From: Gemmatimonadota bacterium
Lineage (GTDB): Bacteria > Gemmatimonadota > Gemmatimonadetes > Gemmatimonadales > GWC2-71-9
Direction: 5' to 3'
Length of the DNA: 64,000 bases
Assembly: GCA_041500125.1 (NCBI GenBank)
Contig: JBGQLP010000006.1
Location: 1,452-65,451 of the forward strand
Both the position numbers and the translations under genes were made by a program. The stretch's first letter is position 1; each line of letters begins with the position of its first letter. Of the stretch, positions 19,108-30,069 are shown piece by piece. The notes under the pieces are model-generated. The model searched no databases and was not told the DNA's origin. It saw only the letters and a program-made list of their open reading frames with translations.

Positions 19108-20895
19108 CTAGCGCTTCTCCACGTCGGCGCGGAGCCGCAGCAACGCGTCTTCGGTCGCGATCAGCTCCCCGCGCGCCTCGTTGAGCTGCTGCTGTTGGCT
19201 CTGCACGAAGCGACGGTAGGGCGCGATTGCTTCGTTGATCCGAACGGTGGATTGCTCCAGCTCGAGATGCACCTGACGGGTGAGCGCATCCTTCAGCCGG
19301 GCTCGGAGCTGGGCGATCCGGCGCTGGAGGTCGCGCTGGGCTTGCCGCCGTTTCCGGGGGAGAATGTAGAAGCCGCCGACCGCGAGCGCGGTGGCGAGGA
19401 GAATCCCGGTCAGGTCGGCGGCGGCCCCCGTGACTACGGTCACCACGATTGTCCCCAGGCCGATCGCCCCGGCCTCGGCCAGCGCCGTCGTCGCGAAGGC
19501 CCCCTGAATCTCGTTCGCGATGGTGCGCGACTCGGCTTCCCGATTGTAGCTGCCGACCACTTCACGGGATATTCGGCCGATCGAATCCAGCAGTGCCTGA
19601 CGGTTGTAGCTGAAGCTCGGACCGACATCGCCGATCATCCCTTCCCGGTGCCGGGTGAGCTGGCGGCGCTCGATGTAGCCGCTGATGTCCTGCCAGAGCT
19701 TGAGGTTCCGCTCCACGATCCAGTCGATGACCCGGGCAACCTCCTCCTCCATCTGTCGGGTCGTATCCCCGATCACCTCCCGCTCGAATGCCCGCTTCAC
19801 TCCCTCGCTGTCCATAAGACTCTTGATCCGGCCGATGCGAATGGTCTCCTCGAAGAAACGCTGCCCTCGTCCCTCCATATCGCTCAGCAACACATCCAGC
19901 CGAGCCAACCGGGGCTCGAACTCCCGCAGCATATCCTGCTGGAAGAGTGCTAGCTGCTGGTCGATGTTTTGTAGCGCCTCGATGTCCTGCGCCAGCAGTT
20001 TCAGTCGCTCGAAGGTGGCGTCCTTGTACTTGGATGCCAGGCGGAGCCCGACGTTGAGGGGATTGAGCAGCTTGAGCCGTACCCGCTCCTCCTGGTCCAA
20101 GGTGTTGAGCAGATAATCCTCGACCTCGCCGAAGCCACTTCGTTCCCACCGGTCTACTTCTCCGTTCGTTCCGCTCTTTCCACCCTTCTCCCGCGCGGCG
20201 ATGGCCTCCCGCGCCGACACGGCGAAGACCCGGGGGCTTTCCGTCAGCAGTCCGGCCGCGTTTTCCTCGACGTAGCGGAGCACCTCATCCCGCTCTGCCG
20301 GCCGCGTCAAAATGTCGATCTTGTTGACGATGAAGACGATCTTCTTGCCCCACTCGCGGATCTGCTCGAGGAATGCCCGCTCGCTCTCGGTGAAAGGCCG
20401 GTCAGCGGAGGTGACGAACAACACCAGATCTGACCGGGGGATGAAGTCGCGGGTCAGCTCCTCATGGCGGCGGATAATGGCATTGGTACCCGGCGTGTCC
20501 ACGATGTTGATCTCTCGCAGGACCTCTGCGGGATGGGTTCGCTCCAAGAGGTAGGCCTCCCGCAGCTGTTCGGTCACTCCGGCTCCATGGCGCAGAATGT
20601 TGATGCGGTCGGTGGTCGGGGTGACCCCTTCGGGCAAGACTCGCTCGCCGAGGAGGGCATTGATGAAGCTGGACTTTCCCGAATTGAACTCACCCGCGAT
20701 CACCAGCAAGAAGAGACCGGTGAGCTGCTCCCGAGCCTCCTGGAACCGGCGCAGGTCGTCGGTGGCTACGTCGGATCCGAATCGCTCCAACGCTGTCGCG
20801 AGCCGCTCCAGCAGCTCCTGCTCCCGGGCGCGCAGCTCCTGCTCCCCCTTGGACAGGATTCCCTTCCGGGCCAGTAGCTTGCCGATGACGGTCAC
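19108..20895 (-). CDS. Bacterial dynamin-like GTPase
   Basis: GEFNSGKSS, VTPTT, VDTPGTN and VNKID; helical stalk with paired TM/paddle segment; GTG start with GGAGG. Confidence 0.9.
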   Translation of the reverse strand: MTVIGKLLARKGILSKGEQELRAREQELLERLATALERFGSDVATDDLRRFQEAREQLTGLFLLVIAGEFNSGKSSFINALLGERVLPEGVTPTTDRINILRHGAGVTEQLREAYLLERTHPAEVLREINIVDTPGTNAIIRRHEELTRDFIPRSDLVLFVTSADRPFTESERAFLEQIREWGKKIVFIVNKIDILTRPAERDEVLRYVEENAAGLLTESPRVFAVSAREAIAAREKGGKSGTNGEVDRWERSGFGEVEDYLLNTLDQEERVRLKLLNPLNVGLRLASKYKDATFERLKLLAQDIEALQNIDQQLALFQQDMLREFEPRLARLDVLLSDMEGRGQRFFEETIRIGRIKSLMDSEGVKRAFEREVIGDTTRQMEEEVARVIDWIVERNLKLWQDISGYIERRQLTRHREGMIGDVGPSFSYNRQALLDSIGRISREVVGSYNREAESRTIANEIQGAFATTALAEAGAIGLGTIVVTVVTGAAADLTGILLATALAVGGFYILPRKRRQAQRDLQRRIAQLRARLKDALTRQVHLELEQSTVRINEAIAPYRRFVQSQQQQLNEARGELIATEDALLRLRADVEKR

Positions 20896-20977
20896 GGCAC
20901 CTCCCCCAGCAGTTTTCCGGCGGCTATCTCCGGCACTATGGTGCAGCCGGAAGAGGCGTCGGGTAAGCCCCCTGGCA

Positions 20978-21715
20978 TCAGGCGGATGGGTGAGCCCGGC
21001 GGGCCTCACGGGCGGTGGATTCTGACTGCGCAGGATGAAGCTTCAGGTACCGGGCTACGGCCCTGAGATCGGAGAAGAACTGACGCCTCGCTTCATCCCG
21101 AGAGTCGGCTGGAGCTCGCAGTACCGCCGATGGATGCATCGTTGCGAAGAGTGCTTGGGCCAAATCCGACGGGATCGGCTTTCCCCGATGCTGGGTCACC
21201 CTGAATTCTTTGCCCAGCAGCGCCTGGGCCGCGGTGGCGCCCAGCGCGACGATCGCCTTCGGCTTGACCAAACGAATTTCCTCCATCAGCCAGGGCTTGC
21301 AGGCACGCACCTGAGCGGGACTCGGCTTCTTGTGCAGCCTGCGGCCCCGCTCGATGAGAACGAATTTGAAGTGCTTGACGGCATTGGTGAGGTAGACTCG
21401 CCTGCGATCGATGCCGGCCTGCTCCAAGCCCGCGTCGAGTAGCTTGCCCGCAGGGCCCACGAAGGGGTGGCCCAGCCGGTCCTCCTGATCGCCAGGCTGC
21501 TCGCCCACCAACATTGCTTCTGCATTGGCGGGCCCTTCCCCGAAGACCGTCTGGGTGGCGTTGATCCACAGGTCGCACCCCCGACACCGGGCGGCGGCCT
21601 CACGTAGCTTGGGCAGCGATGGGTACGGCGGAAGGAAGTCGGCGGCTGATCCGGACGACCTAGTGCCCGCCTTAGTGACTCTTTCGTTACTTAGGTGCAA
21701 TGGTTTAGCTGGCAT
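20978..21715 (-). CDS. udgX: UdgX-type uracil-DNA binding protein (family-4 UDG-like, Fe-S)
   Basis: CRGCDL, VFGEG, GEQPGDQED, PFVGPAG, TNAVKHFKF, R-loop GRRLHKKP, ACKPWL and HPS. Start uncertain. Confidence 0.88.
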   Translation of the reverse strand: MPAKPLHLSNERVTKAGTRSSGSAADFLPPYPSLPKLREAAARCRGCDLWINATQTVFGEGPANAEAMLVGEQPGDQEDRLGHPFVGPAGKLLDAGLEQAGIDRRRVYLTNAVKHFKFVLIERGRRLHKKPSPAQVRACKPWLMEEIRLVKPKAIVALGATAAQALLGKEFRVTQHRGKPIPSDLAQALFATMHPSAVLRAPADSRDEARRQFFSDLRAVARYLKLHPAQSESTAREARRAHPSA

Positions 21716-25629: not shown

Positions 25630-26148
25630 TTAAGTAATGCGAATGGGGGTCGGGATCGGTATGGTGAGCCGGGTCAGGACCTGGCGCTGCATCTCGGTTG
25701 CGAGGTCCAGCACGGCCGACAGCTGGGTGACCAGATCGTGCAACTCGGAAGGGTCGAGGGCCGGATCGCCCCCGAGCGCCCTTGCCTGCTCCTCCAGCAT
25801 GACGAAGCCCGCGTGGGCAAAGGCCATCCGTTCCCAGAGCGGGAGGATCTGCTCGAGTTGGGCGGTCGATAAGGCGGCCGTCGTATTCTCGAAGTCCCGT
25901 TCCAATGGCGCGATCAGATGGGCCAGTTGCTGTGCCAGCACCCGGGCCCGTTCCGAGTCGACCGACGGCAGAGTGTCAGTTGTTGCAGCGATTGCGGCAG
26001 CCCACTGCTGGAGATCACCGTACTCCTGGCCCAGGGTTGCCAGCGCGGCGCGGCTGGAATCTTCGCGGAGAGGCACCGCTCCGGTGCCGAAGCTGACCAG
26101 GTTGAGAATCAGGCTCGTGAGCCCGGCCACGATCAAGGTGCGCCGCAC
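25630..26148 (-). CDS. Hypothetical secreted alpha-helical protein
   Basis: AAGGAG RBS, GTG start, N-terminal signal-like segment. Confidence 0.65.
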   Translation of the reverse strand: MRRTLIVAGLTSLILNLVSFGTGAVPLREDSSRAALATLGQEYGDLQQWAAAIAATTDTLPSVDSERARVLAQQLAHLIAPLERDFENTTAALSTAQLEQILPLWERMAFAHAGFVMLEEQARALGGDPALDPSELHDLVTQLSAVLDLATEMQRQVLTRLTIPIPTPIRIT

Positions 26149-26286: not shown

Positions 26287-27306
26287 TCAGGCGGAGTTGC
26301 TGCCCCAGCCGCGGAGCGCCCGCACGTAGTCATGCAGCACCAAGAATTTCTCGAACAGGATGACCCCTTTGCGCTTGCGTCCGAACTCACCGAAGAGGTC
26401 GCGCAGCCGCCCCCGGCGAGTGACGTAGAACCGAAAGGTCTCGGCAAAATCTTCCTGGGGGTGCTTGGCGGCGTACGCGCTGACGAAATTGGAAGGTGCG
26501 ATGGCGATTCGGCGGCGCTGGAAGTAGACCCAGGTGTTGTCCATCCCCCGATAGGCCTTGTCCACCTCACCGAAGGCGCGGCGGAATTGCCGGCTGCGGG
26601 TCCACTCCCAATGATGGTAGAGAAAGCTGTGTCCCAGCTCATGGGTGATGAGTCCGACCAGCATGGTCCAGGGAATCTCATCCCGCCGGCGCTTCCCCAC
26701 CACATAGCGCTGCTCGATCTCGACCATGTCGGGGTACTTGGGATCGACTCCTGACACGCCGGGGCGCAGGAGAATGCGATAGTCCCAATCCTTGATCCGG
26801 GAGACGAGAAGCAGGCGGCGGACCCGGGTGAGGGCCCGAGGAATGAGATCGCGCCCGGTGGAGTCCCCACCACACCAGGGGCAGAAATTCATCAGGTCGT
26901 CCACTCCCCGAGCGCAGTGGGGGCACTCCCCCTCGAAGAATCTGTCCTCGTTCCAACTCTGGGTCCGGCTGCACCAGGGGCAGTGCCGCATCGGATACTG
27001 CACTCCACCGCCACAGCCCCAGTCACAGCGCGCATCCATCCGAAACCCCCTCGGCGCCTTCAGAGGTTCATCGCTGGAATAGCCTTCCTCGTGAATGTTT
27101 GCTCCACACCAGGGGCAGCAGGCAAATTTGTCGGACACCGCCCAGCCGCACTTGTAGCACTCCGCACCGGTAAGCCCGCCGAAGTCGCGCCACCGGTGCG
27201 CTCGTCCACAGTCGGAGCAGTATCCACGGTAGCGCTGCACCCATTCCCCGCAGACGCACCGCGCCCTTCGGGGCCAGGCCCGGACCCGTCGCCTACGCGC
27301 GCTCAT
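26287..27306 (-). CDS. Putative zinc metallopeptidase with N-terminal multiple zinc ribbons
   Basis: CxC, CSDC, CYKC, CPWC x3, CDWGC and CPHC; HELGH; YAAKHPQEDFAETF. Confidence 0.82.
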   Translation of the reverse strand: MSARRRRVRAWPRRARCVCGEWVQRYRGYCSDCGRAHRWRDFGGLTGAECYKCGWAVSDKFACCPWCGANIHEEGYSSDEPLKAPRGFRMDARCDWGCGGGVQYPMRHCPWCSRTQSWNEDRFFEGECPHCARGVDDLMNFCPWCGGDSTGRDLIPRALTRVRRLLLVSRIKDWDYRILLRPGVSGVDPKYPDMVEIEQRYVVGKRRRDEIPWTMLVGLITHELGHSFLYHHWEWTRSRQFRRAFGEVDKAYRGMDNTWVYFQRRRIAIAPSNFVSAYAAKHPQEDFAETFRFYVTRRGRLRDLFGEFGRKRKGVILFEKFLVLHDYVRALRGWGSNSA

Positions 27307-28330
27307 ACCGGGCCACCGCCGCGTCGACGATGCGCTGGATAAAATCCGTGTACTCCATGCCGGCTTTGGCGGCCGAGTTGGCCATGTCGTGCCCATAGCT
27401 TATGAAGGGGTTCGCGTTTGCTTCCAGGACCCACACCTGGCCGTCGGCAGCGAGCCGGAGGTCCAGTCTGCCATAGTCCCGCAGCCACAGAGCTCGATAC
27501 GCCGTGCGGCAGGTTTCCACGATGCGCTCTCGCACCGCCTTGGCTATGGGTCGCGCCAAGACGTTTCGGATCCCTCTTCTCTCCCGGTACGACTCGTCCC
27601 ACTTGGCGAATTGCGTAGCGATGCGCTCCTCGGGCTTGGACCTGCGCTTATCGAACACCATCTCCGTAATCGGGAGTACCTGGAGGGCGTCGTCATTCCC
27701 GATGATGCTGACATAGAGCTCCCGGCCGTCAACGAACTCCTCGGCAATGGCGCCTTGGCCAAATCGCTGATGAATGAAGGAGACCCGATCGGCCAGGGCG
27801 TCGACGTCCTGTACCACCGAGGCCTGGGATATTCCCGCGGAAGCATCGGCTTGCAGCGGCTTGACTATGAGTGGAAAGGCGAGGGCAGGTGGGCTGGTGA
27901 CCTCCTCGTGCAATCGGTAGCTGACGAATCCCGGCACCGGAACCCCAAAGTAGGCCAAGATTTTCTTGCTGATGGCCTTGTTGCGGGTCACCTGGAGTCC
28001 CAGCGGCGGCGCGCCAGTGTAGCGGTGCCCCTCCGCCTCCAGCAGGCCCGGCAGCAGATACTCCAACGACTCGTCGCCGCTGAACGCCTCCGCGCCATTG
28101 AAGACGAGGTCCGGACGCCATTCACTCAGATGGCGTACCAGGTACTCGAGGTCGTCCCTCACACCGAGGAGCCGTACCTCGTGTCCCCGTTCGCGCAGGG
28201 CATGGGCAATCTGGTATTCCATCTCGGGCTCGTTCGCCTTCCAGGCGGCAACCTCCAACTCCATTTGCCGCTCGTGGTCGGGATGATCCCAACCCGAGTA
28301 TGGAGTGTCAAAAACGACGGCGACGCGCAT
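27293..28330 (-). CDS. D-Ala-D-Ala-ligase-like ATP-grasp enzyme (non-canonical)
   Basis: YTGA...NKAISKKIL, PLIVKP, EEFVDGRE, GRLDLRL and EANANP; lacks the Ddl GGxSxEHxVS N-terminus. Confidence 0.88.
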   Translation of the reverse strand: MRVAVVFDTPYSGWDHPDHERQMELEVAAWKANEPEMEYQIAHALRERGHEVRLLGVRDDLEYLVRHLSEWRPDLVFNGAEAFSGDESLEYLLPGLLEAEGHRYTGAPPLGLQVTRNKAISKKILAYFGVPVPGFVSYRLHEEVTSPPALAFPLIVKPLQADASAGISQASVVQDVDALADRVSFIHQRFGQGAIAEEFVDGRELYVSIIGNDDALQVLPITEMVFDKRRSKPEERIATQFAKWDESYRERRGIRNVLARPIAKAVRERIVETCRTAYRALWLRDYGRLDLRLAADGQVWVLEANANPFISYGHDMANSAAKAGMEYTDFIQRIVDAAVARYERA

Positions 28331-28554
28331 AATCTGTATCAAAATCCCGGGTGCAGACACGTAATGCCAGGTCGCTGCTCATCTTGCGGCCCCAAAAAGG
28401 GCATCGCGAAATGCCCGGAAGATATCCCGGGTCAAAAGCTGCAAGTAGTTGTAATGCAACCGCATGGCCCATGGCTTACCGATTGCTCCTGTTTTCCAGC
28501 GTCTGGGCCCCCGTTTCCTGCTGGTAAACCCGCTGACTGGAATCGAGCCGCCGA

Positions 28555-30069
28555 ATGCGTCGACGTCTGTACCGGACGCTGGTACTCACCTCTCTGAGCG
28601 GCTTCATCCCCGCAAGCCACGCTGCTGCCCAGGAACTGACCTCCCATGAACTGGCAGGGGTGGATGATTGGTACCGGCGGACCCTGGGACGCACTGGAGA
28701 CGGTGAGTGGGGCGTGGCCATCGGCACCATGGATGGCCGAGTCTTGTGGAGCCTGAACCCCGAGCTGGAACTCATTCCGGCATCGACCGCCAAACTGTTC
28801 ACGGTCGGGTTCAGTCGCGCGCGCGCCGGTGGGGGAGCCAGAATCTCCACCCGGGTGATCGGCAGAGGCAGTCTCGATTCGGCGACTGGACGTTGGCAGG
28901 GGGGCTGGCAGCTCGAGCTTGGAGGCGATCCTACGCTGGATCGCCCCGGCCGCGCCGGACCCACGCTTCGAGAGCTGGCCCGCCAGCTTCGTGACCGGGG
29001 CGTGCGCACTCTCGAGGGTCCCCTGACGCTCACCAGCCGGACCGGACCGGCCGCCTCACGCTACCCAGCGGTATGGTCGGCGGAGTTTGCGGGACAGCTC
29101 TACGCGCCGCCGGTGGGGCCGGTCACACTGCATGAGAATACCATCTCCCTCACGTACCGCCCTGGTGCGGACGTCGGCTCGCCGCTCACCCTGGTCTCAG
29201 CCTATCCCGCTGGAGTCGAACGCCTGGTCCGGATGAGCGCCACCACGGTGGGCGGAAGCCGCCGGCGGCTGACCCTGACTCCTGAATCGGACGGCGGCTG
29301 GACTCTCGCCGGAAGCCTCGGCATCTCCTCCCGGGCCGTGGGGATCTCGGCCGTGGCCCATGAGCCCGTGAGCGTCCTCGCGTATGCCTGGGCGGCGGCG
29401 CTGGACCGCGCGGGCATTAAATGGATCAACCGAAATGCCCCGCCGCCGGCGTGGCCGGGGCTCCCGGCGGTCCTGGCCAAGGTGGAGTCCGCCCCCTTCG
29501 ACAGCGTCGCGGTCGAGATCAACCGGCGGAGCCTGAATATCGGCGCCGAGTTGGTGCTCCAATGGGCCGCGGCGAGCCAGACAGCGGGTCCGGCGATGCT
29601 CACACAGCACGTTCGGGAGGTCGTCGGTCCACGAGCCCAGGTGCGCCTGGTTGACGGCAGCGGACTGAGCGAGCTCGATCGGGTCAGCCCGCTGACCCAG
29701 ATGCTCTACCTCGCCCGCTATCCCCAGAGGCGCGGTGCCGAGCGCTTCCCGCTGTTGCTCCCGGCAAACGGAATTGGCACCCTGCGCAGTCTGCGGGGCG
29801 GCATGGCTAAGGGCGTGGTACATGCCAAGACCGGTACTCTCGACCACGTCGCCACTTTGGCCGGTTACCTGGGCCGTCCCGACGGAGTCCTGGTGCTCTC
29901 GCTGATGTACAACGGCCGGCGGATCCACGCAGCGCGAGCGGCCCAATGGGAGCTCTTCCGTTTGCTCGGCGCCGAAGGGGTCAATCTGAGCGGCGCGCTC
30001 GATACCCACATGGGTGGTAGCACCGACCTGGATGAGGAAGCGGCGGACTCAGCCACCGTCGATCGCTAG
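28555..30069 (+). CDS. dacB: D-Ala-D-Ala carboxypeptidase/endopeptidase (PBP4, peptidase S13)
   Basis: PASTAK (SxxK), SLN (SxN), DGSGLS, KTGTL; signal peptide. Confidence 0.88.
   Translation: MRRRLYRTLVLTSLSGFIPASHAAAQELTSHELAGVDDWYRRTLGRTGDGEWGVAIGTMDGRVLWSLNPELELIPASTAKLFTVGFSRARAGGGARISTRVIGRGSLDSATGRWQGGWQLELGGDPTLDRPGRAGPTLRELARQLRDRGVRTLEGPLTLTSRTGPAASRYPAVWSAEFAGQLYAPPVGPVTLHENTISLTYRPGADVGSPLTLVSAYPAGVERLVRMSATTVGGSRRRLTLTPESDGGWTLAGSLGISSRAVGISAVAHEPVSVLAYAWAAALDRAGIKWINRNAPPPAWPGLPAVLAKVESAPFDSVAVEINRRSLNIGAELVLQWAAASQTAGPAMLTQHVREVVGPRAQVRLVDGSGLSELDRVSPLTQMLYLARYPQRRGAERFPLLLPANGIGTLRSLRGGMAKGVVHAKTGTLDHVATLAGYLGRPDGVLVLSLMYNGRRIHAARAAQWELFRLLGAEGVNLSGALDTHMGGSTDLDEEAADSATVDR

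Follow-up and report, generated by a model that had tools for sequence, protein, structure and literature searches.

Two overlapping genes for a ligase and a peptidase

The window analysed here is the whole of a 64,000-nucleotide (nt) stretch of DNA from a Gemmatimonadota bacterium (assembly GCA_041500125.1, contig JBGQLP010000006.1, positions 1,452-65,451, forward strand). Within it are two overlapping minus-strand genes, one encoding a Ddl-like ATP-grasp amide ligase (AG1) and the other a peptidase in which four zinc ribbons precede a Peptidase_Mx domain (ZnR-Mx; Table 1). The pair represents a widespread two-gene cassette in a lineage-specific variant that occurs mainly in a single family of Gemmatimonadales. 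An earlier note on this DNA had drawn attention to the two genes, but it missed their relationship to this much wider combination of an Mx peptidase and an ATP-grasp ligase.

AG1 begins MRVAVVF, and its length of 345 aa is the commonest among its homologues. ZnR-Mx begins MSARRRR, a start that is shared by all homologues in a 21-sequence alignment. At the junction (...cggtATGAGCGCGCGTAGgcg) the ATG of the peptidase gene is at 27306 and the TAG of the ligase gene at 27295-27293, giving the 14-nt overlap that the earlier note had described. As read from the sequence, this arrangement is consistent with translational coupling. There is no signal peptide in AG1 or in ZnR-Mx and both are therefore expected to be cytoplasmic.

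Table 1. Features of the AG1/ZnR-Mx locus (coordinates are those of the window)
Feature	Position	Strand	Details
AG1, Ddl-like ATP-grasp amide ligase of the Mx-peptidase-associated clade	27293..28330	-	345 aa; Pfam PF07478
ZnR-Mx, Arg-rich N-terminus, four predicted Cys4 zinc ribbons and Peptidase_Mx gluzincin domain	26287..27306	-	339 aa; Pfam PF15887
Overlap of AG1 stop and ZnR-Mx start, 14 nt (ATGAGCGCGCGTAG)	27293..27306	-	Read from sequence
Four-zinc-ribbon module of ZnR-Mx, residues 17-145	26872..27258	-	16 conserved Cys, eight pairs
Peptidase_Mx catalytic domain, residues 150-339	26290..26859	-	77-sequence alignment
HELGH, predicted zinc-binding/catalytic motif, residues 222-226	26629..26643	-	Read from sequence; invariant across two Mx subfamilies
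QEDFAE motif, residues 284-289	26440..26457	-	E285, D286, A288 and E289 invariant across two Mx subfamilies
dacB, Peptidase_S13, PBP4-type	28555-30069	+	Pfam; divergent from the pair
Intergenic region between dacB and AG1	28331..28554	.	Blocks conserved within the genus

AG1 belongs to the ATP-grasp superfamily: it scores 89.1 bits against Dala_Dala_lig_C (PF07478, gathering cut-off 24) and its best matches in the PDB are Ddl structures (E about 1e-18). However, it falls below the cut-offs of both NCBIfam models for Ddl (110.1 bits against 243 for NF002378; 100.3 bits against 245.65 for TIGR01205), whereas the true Ddl of the same genome, on contig C13, reaches 322.7 and 291.3 bits respectively. 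The true Ddl contains GGTSTERDV and LHGGRGEDG, neither of which is present in AG1. There was no Pfam match between AG1 and RimK (PF08443), and a paralogue of AG1 on contig C54 (see below) matched it only at a sub-threshold 20.6 bits.

An alignment of 46 ligases of the clade that contains AG1 shows K118, K157, S164, G166, E197, R203, E204, E223, K243, R288, D290, R292, E303 and N305 to be invariant. In DdlB the counterparts of these residues are those for ATP, Mg and acyl phosphate, and the equivalents of DdlB K97, K144, E180, K215, R255, D257, E270 and N272 are all present in AG1, R288 being the counterpart of Ddl R255. In the established numbering of the literature, the D-Ala-binding residues of Escherichia coli DdlB are E15 in GGxSxE, H63, the S150/Y216 triad and S281/L282. 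This site is lost in the AG1 clade: GGxSxE is absent, H63 is replaced by an invariant Asn (N78) and Y216 by Trp (W244), and S281/L282 are not kept. With the residues for ATP, Mg and acyl phosphate intact and the D-Ala features gone, AG1 seems to be an active carboxylate-amine ligase for a substrate other than D-Ala, and its sequence argues against the formation of D-Ala-D-Ala. The description of a Ddl-like ATP-binding core that lacks the N-terminal D-Ala motif is therefore borne out both by Pfam and by comparison with the true Ddl of the genome.

Phylogenetic analysis places all the ligases that are linked to Mx peptidases in one clade (95 in the Shimodaira-Hasegawa-like approximate likelihood ratio test, SH-aLRT), within which the AG1 subfamily is monophyletic (SH-aLRT 99). 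The clade is separate from true Ddl and from a Ddl-like paralogue near genes for a lysine 2,3-aminomutase and a GNAT protein. The region concerned (contig C52:16608-19845) encodes a lysine 2,3-aminomutase-like radical S-adenosylmethionine (SAM) protein, a GNAT acetyltransferase and, in tandem, two Ddl-like ATP-grasp proteins; the genes overlap and share one strand. It may be a pathway for a beta-lysine-derived peptide or osmolyte, and its Ddl-like ligases fall outside the Mx-linked clade.

ZnR-Mx is a member of Peptidase_Mx (PF15887; 51.1 bits, gathering cut-off 27) and also matches DZR (PF12773; 28.3 bits, cut-off 27.3), DUF7575 and Zn_ribbon_3. Its N-terminal half contains 16 Cys residues in eight pairs (C17/C19, C30/C33, C50/C53, C64/C67, C94/C98, C109/C112, C128/C131 and C142/C145), all of which show little or no variation in 21 homologues and in the distant fusion proteins described below. 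A 17th Cys, C63, is variable. The pattern fits four predicted Cys4 zinc sites. Eight Cys clusters, enough for about four zinc sites and followed by HELGH and an ED pair, were what the earlier note had read, and the alignments agree.

Across 77 aligned Mx sequences the invariant residues of the catalytic domain are H222, E223, H226, F245, G246, Y278, A279, H282, P283, E285, D286, A288, E289 and F291. By analogy with gluzincins of the HExxH...E type, a Glu of the QEDFAE motif is the probable third zinc ligand. The zincin core is intact, and ZnR-Mx is a predicted peptidase. In profile searches the Mx domain matched two PDB entries, 4L7A (E=1.6e-5) and 9URD (E=0.0024); a weak match was to the M34 Pro-Pro endopeptidases (E=0.04 for PPEP-1). 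Together with structure-model comparisons, in which M34-type gluzincins were always top-ranked, these matches are no more than suggestive; they would put Mx among the HExxH + Glu endopeptidases that bind extended peptides. The tree of the catalytic domains of ribbon-bearing Mx proteins is not resolved at depth. The net charge of the peptidase ranges from +6 to +28 and that of the ligase from -9 to -21.

Conservation of the pair and the wider cassette

The closest homologues all come from metagenome-assembled genomes of Gemmatimonadales, and the ligase gene is directly upstream of the peptidase gene at 73 of 80 related genome loci. We sampled 301 Gemmatimonadota genomes. Full-length ribbon-peptidase is encoded in 79 of them, 78 from one family and one from another. 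An orthologous ligase (called at E <= 1e-100) is present in 71, every one of which also has the peptidase, and there is no genome among the 301 that has the ligase without the peptidase. The remaining eight peptidase-positive genomes have no ligase; among them are the three members of genus g2 in the sample, without exception. In several close relatives the ligase gene has been cleanly deleted, so that the peptidase gene now adjoins dacB. In the ligase-less loci that were examined, and in the loci of genus g27 (see below), the peptidase keeps the 16 ribbon Cys, HExxH and EDFAE. The peptidase therefore remains intact where the ligase is missing, whereas a ligase on its own is never seen, and this makes the peptidase the primary partner. 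The earlier note had made its coupling of a non-canonical ATP-grasp ligase to a peptidase depend in part on conservation of the pair; in our neighbourhood survey the pair is conserved and the coupling holds.

The 14-nt overlap is identical in 74 of the 84 loci that have both genes. Most of the others overlap by 4-11 nt, and three outlying values were attributed to miscalled start codons. In distant genera the two genes occur in three or more syntenic contexts that are unrelated to one another, and the pair is all that these have in common. These are core-genome contexts, with 58-97% identity within one family, and the pair appears to have been inherited vertically there. No third conserved open reading frame (ORF) of 80-90 aa or more was found at 21 Gemmatimonadota loci from more distant genera or at 80 metagenomic loci, very short ORFs not having been searched exhaustively. 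Nor was there a precursor-peptide gene, as in graspetide and other clusters for ATP-grasp-modified RiPPs (peptides made on the ribosome and modified after translation), at either set of loci.

The 80 metagenomic loci were obtained by a scan with ribbon-less Mx peptidases and span GC (guanine plus cytosine) contents of 0.32-0.71. At 70 of them the Mx gene is followed directly, on the same strand, by a ligase gene whose product is 34-47% identical to AG1; at the other ten there is little or no sequence beyond the Mx gene. No cell-wall gene is a conserved neighbour at these 80 loci. The genome studied here has a second pair of this kind on contig C54 (C54:2080-5714), where the gene for a ribbon-less Mx peptidase (342 aa, plus strand; motif HEMGH...HPDEDWAETF) converges on that for an ATP-grasp protein (328 aa) with 41% identity to AG1. 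A DUF885 gene (538 aa) overlaps this ligase gene by 4 nt. The C54-type peptidase, Mx2, occurs in 65 of the 301 genomes, in three Gemmatimonadales families, and its gene adjoins that of its ligase wherever coordinates were compared. There were no plasmid-borne relatives of Mx2. In the literature we found no study of the cassette, experimental or other, and no paper that names Peptidase_Mx (PF15887) as meant here or an operon combining ATP-grasp, HExxH and zinc-ribbon proteins; a prior computational mention is possible in the 2009 amidoligase survey by Iyer and colleagues. Two representative proteins, P0373 and P0343, join an Mx domain to a C-terminal region with a likeness, judged only by eye, to succinylglutamate-desuccinylase/M14-type carboxypeptidases; should this likeness be genuine, each protein would carry two peptidase domains.

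As to the zinc-ribbon module, a search among 1.84 billion representative proteins gave only 214 related clusters, and the full-length relatives outside the main family were P0241 from Palauibacterales (59% identity) and two low-GC proteins (31-32% identity). In distant proteins the same 16-Cys module is fused to Prok-JAB, to Peptidase_C39, to a weakly matching nucleoside-deoxyribosyltransferase-like domain or to a domain of unknown function. The association of one module with three unrelated peptidase folds (Mx, JAB and C39) suggests that it is probably a targeting module. Its net charge varies from -12 to +16 across the fusions, and the module is therefore not a generic binder of nucleic acids. 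The suggestion that the Cys-rich arm might be the substrate of the ligase is less likely than a targeting role, since no ligase gene was found near the ribbon-JAB or ribbon-C39 genes where the context could be read. Ribbon-JAB genes on metagenome and NCBI contigs (L139-L141) lie in a conserved string of genes encoding DndB, ParB_N, an SNF2 helicase, a radical SAM protein, DUF1232, Macro, DjlA/TerB/DnaJ and a YhcG-like nuclease, with AbiEii also near the ribbon-JAB protein P0422. This region looks like a defence or mobile island.

The genes around the pair in the window are neighbours at the level of the genus only. The presence of dacB, divergent from the pair, was as the earlier note had reported, but dacB, AlaX and a gene for a 172-aa protein (hyp172) are absent from the 21 loci of more distant genera. 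The hyp172 gene (25630-26148, minus strand) is located 138 nt downstream of the peptidase gene, and its product has an N-terminal hydrophobic segment, no match in Pfam or NCBIfam, and conservation confined to the genus. We considered hyp172 and AlaX as further members of the operon and rejected them, their adjacency being limited to the genus. There is also a dynamin-like GTPase gene about 5 kb away from the pair (19108-21009, minus strand), and P0309, a distant ribbon-Mx protein (L237:1-4810), is encoded after three dynamin-like genes. Any link with dynamin-like proteins is likely to be coincidence, as the position of the window gene reflects genus-level synteny and the association is not seen at other Gemmatimonadota loci.

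A 10-locus alignment of the gap between dacB and AG1 shows four blocks that are conserved within the genus: GAGCAATCG..GAGCCA, CGGGCATTTCGCG (28405-28417, invariant), CTGGCRTTA, and ATCTTGMTAC, which immediately precedes the start codon. The region is probably promoter or operator sequence for the pair. A riboswitch or leader 5' of the ligase gene was rejected: the region matches no Rfam family, and a hairpin followed by a T-run at 28399-28416 is not conserved, the T-run not being kept as such by the relatives in the same alignment.

Possible roles of the pair

The reading that we favour, at a probability of roughly 0.45, is that AG1 and ZnR-Mx form a cytoplasmic cut-and-rejoin (or add-and-remove) pair that acts on a peptide or protein. 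The ribbon module would bring the peptidase to a specific peptide or protein in the cytoplasm, where the peptidase would cut an amide bond and the ligase would use ATP to re-form or extend that bond. The 14-nt overlap could ensure that the ligase is made in a fixed ratio to the peptidase. The acidic surface of the ligase probably binds the very basic peptidase, the opposite charges being compatible with a complex between them. Because the peptidase survives without the ligase and the reverse is never seen, the peptidase most likely acts first or independently. The same asymmetry suggests that it has a substrate of its own and that the ligase is useful only alongside it, presumably working on its product. 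This would be a cut-and-restore cycle, formally like the detyrosination and tyrosination of tubulin, rather than writing followed by erasing. The earlier note had proposed that the two enzymes write and erase a peptide modification; the coupling that this implies stands, whereas simple write and erase agrees poorly with a peptidase that stays intact after loss of the ligase and a ligase that never occurs alone.

A narrower form of this proposal, which is unlikely as it stands, would make the pair the bacterial equivalent of the tubulin cycle. Here the compact 16-Cys array of ribbons would be a reader that docks the Mx peptidase on one or a few proteins of the cytoplasm, a genetically encoded terminal residue or short tail would be removed, and the Ddl-derived ligase would use ATP to restore it, so that the terminal residue would act as a reversible switch. 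JAB and C39 peptidases would have been joined to the same reader in independent events, for the cutting of similar targets.

Several observations weigh against a cut-and-rejoin pair or loosen its parts. The AlphaFold models are of low confidence (pLDDT, the predicted local distance difference test score, of 54 for the full peptidase and 61 for the catalytic domain), and although M34-type gluzincins always rank first among the Foldseek matches, none of these is significant (E >= 0.1; for M34-type proteins E >= 1 on the pLDDT 61 model). An acidic substrate would explain the complementary charges just as well. Three genomes of genus g27 were sampled, and they keep both genes but on different contigs, the pair being otherwise adjacent; neither a physical complex nor strict co-translation is therefore obligatory. 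There is no neighbouring ligase gene for the distant protein P0309 (ribbon-Mx) or for P0422 (ribbon-JAB), which means that the ribbon module as such can do without a ligase. No RNA runs contain the locus, which was found only in DNA metagenomes from sediment and soil. Finally, the closest relatives of AG1 by sequence and structure, and the nearest that are characterised (Ddl and Van), join two small molecules, and this favours a small-molecule product.

On that last point rests the most credible of the alternatives, which we nevertheless judge doubtful. The ligase would make a free dipeptide or pseudopeptide for use as an osmolyte, for storage or in signalling, the Mx peptidase would hydrolyse this product or a competing dipeptide for turnover, and the ribbons would be structural or regulatory, on the pattern of VanA/VanX or of cyanophycin synthetase with its cyanophycinase. 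R288 and the acyl-phosphate residues are conserved, and the general cassette consists of a peptidase gene followed by a ligase gene with no third gene for a protein substrate or precursor. The Ddl-like pair beside the lysine 2,3-aminomutase and GNAT genes in the same genome also resembles small-molecule chemistry. However, a 130-residue array of four ribbons that is exchanged among Mx, JAB and C39 peptidases is more typical of macromolecular targeting, and the nearest characterised relatives of Mx are endopeptidases rather than dipeptidases, although this last is weak evidence. In addition, the peptidase has long been retained without any Mx-linked ligase, for example in genus g2, and its substrate is therefore not solely the product of the ligase.

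A role in conflict or defence is improbable. It would have the ribbon module sense a component of an invader and activate a protease effector, with the ligase as modifier or antidote. The module is combined with varied C-terminal domains, as in defence proteins, and the ribbon-JAB protein P0422 is encoded among DndB, SNF2 helicase, Macro, AbiEii and YhcG-like genes. Against this, neither window protein matched a PADLOC model, the pair was not found on plasmids, and it lies in syntenic core-genome contexts with housekeeping-type neighbours and apparently vertical inheritance. Slightest of all is the peptidoglycan link that the earlier note had raised through dacB, an argument from adjacency that we reject. 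In such a role, in the editing or recycling of precursors, the ligase would make an alternative D-Ala-X terminus or re-ligate recycled stem-peptide fragments while the peptidase trimmed cytoplasmic muropeptides in concert with the dacB product (PBP4). AG1 is homologous to Ddl, and a divergent dacB adjoins the pair both in the window and in many of its close relatives, but this adjacency is genus-level synteny that switches to the other side in one subgroup and is missing at all 21 distant loci, the residues of the D-Ala1 pocket are lost, a bona fide Ddl is encoded elsewhere in the genome, and the 80 metagenomic loci have no conserved cell-wall neighbour.

If a cut-and-rejoin pair is the correct reading, a whole clade of proteins annotated as belonging to the D-Ala-D-Ala ligase family, in bacteria with GC contents from 32% to 71%, is wrongly named, and each of these enzymes would have a zinc peptidase of its own with which to make up an ATP-dependent cycle on amide bonds. 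The portable four-ribbon module of the Gemmatimonadales, which JAB and C39 peptidases also carry, might offer a handle for fishing out the substrate. The identity of that substrate would define either a new reversible modification of bacterial proteins or peptides or a new small-molecule pathway, and would correct the annotation of thousands of genes.

Comparison with known systems

AG1 shares with the Ddl and VanA/B/G ligases both the fold and the residues for ATP, Mg and acyl phosphate. It differs from them in scoring below the family cut-offs, in having lost the D-Ala features and in belonging to a clade of its own, in which linkage to an Mx peptidase is constant. The locus also differs from VanA/VanX in its second component, which is a Peptidase_Mx protein with no M15 or VanY match.

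ZnR-Mx has the compact core of HExxH and a downstream Glu that is seen in the M34 gluzincins (PPEP-1/Zmp1 and PPEP-3) and in Bacteroides lipoproteins of the Mx1 type (4L7A and 9URD). Those proteins, however, are secreted or are lipoproteins and have neither zinc ribbons nor a ligase partner, and the similarity is too weak for membership.

The general Mx cassette is another of the closest systems to the window pair. Both have ligases of the same clade, the peptidase core HExxH...YA..HP.EDFAE.F, tight adjacency of the genes and cytoplasmic products. The order of the genes is reversed: in the window the ligase gene comes first and overlaps the peptidase gene by 14 nt, whereas in the general cassette the peptidase gene precedes that of the ligase. 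ZnR-Mx is also strongly basic, unlike the peptidase of the general cassette, and the N-terminal region of about 95 residues and the C-terminal helical domain of the latter are replaced by the four-ribbon N-terminal module.

Pairings of a ligase with a peptidase or other hydrolase are established elsewhere: tubulin tyrosine ligase (TTL) with detyrosinating carboxypeptidases, RimK with RimB, and cyanophycin synthetase (CphA) with cyanophycinase. AG1 lies outside the TTL, RimK and CphA families, and ZnR-Mx is not an M14, retropepsin-like or S51 peptidase; we claim membership of none of them. The likeness, which draws on established knowledge of these cycles, is that an amide-forming ATP-grasp enzyme is paired with a hydrolase. 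It extends to the distribution of the window pair, in which the peptidase may occur alone and the ligase never does, matching a cycle in which the peptidase creates the substrate of the ligase.

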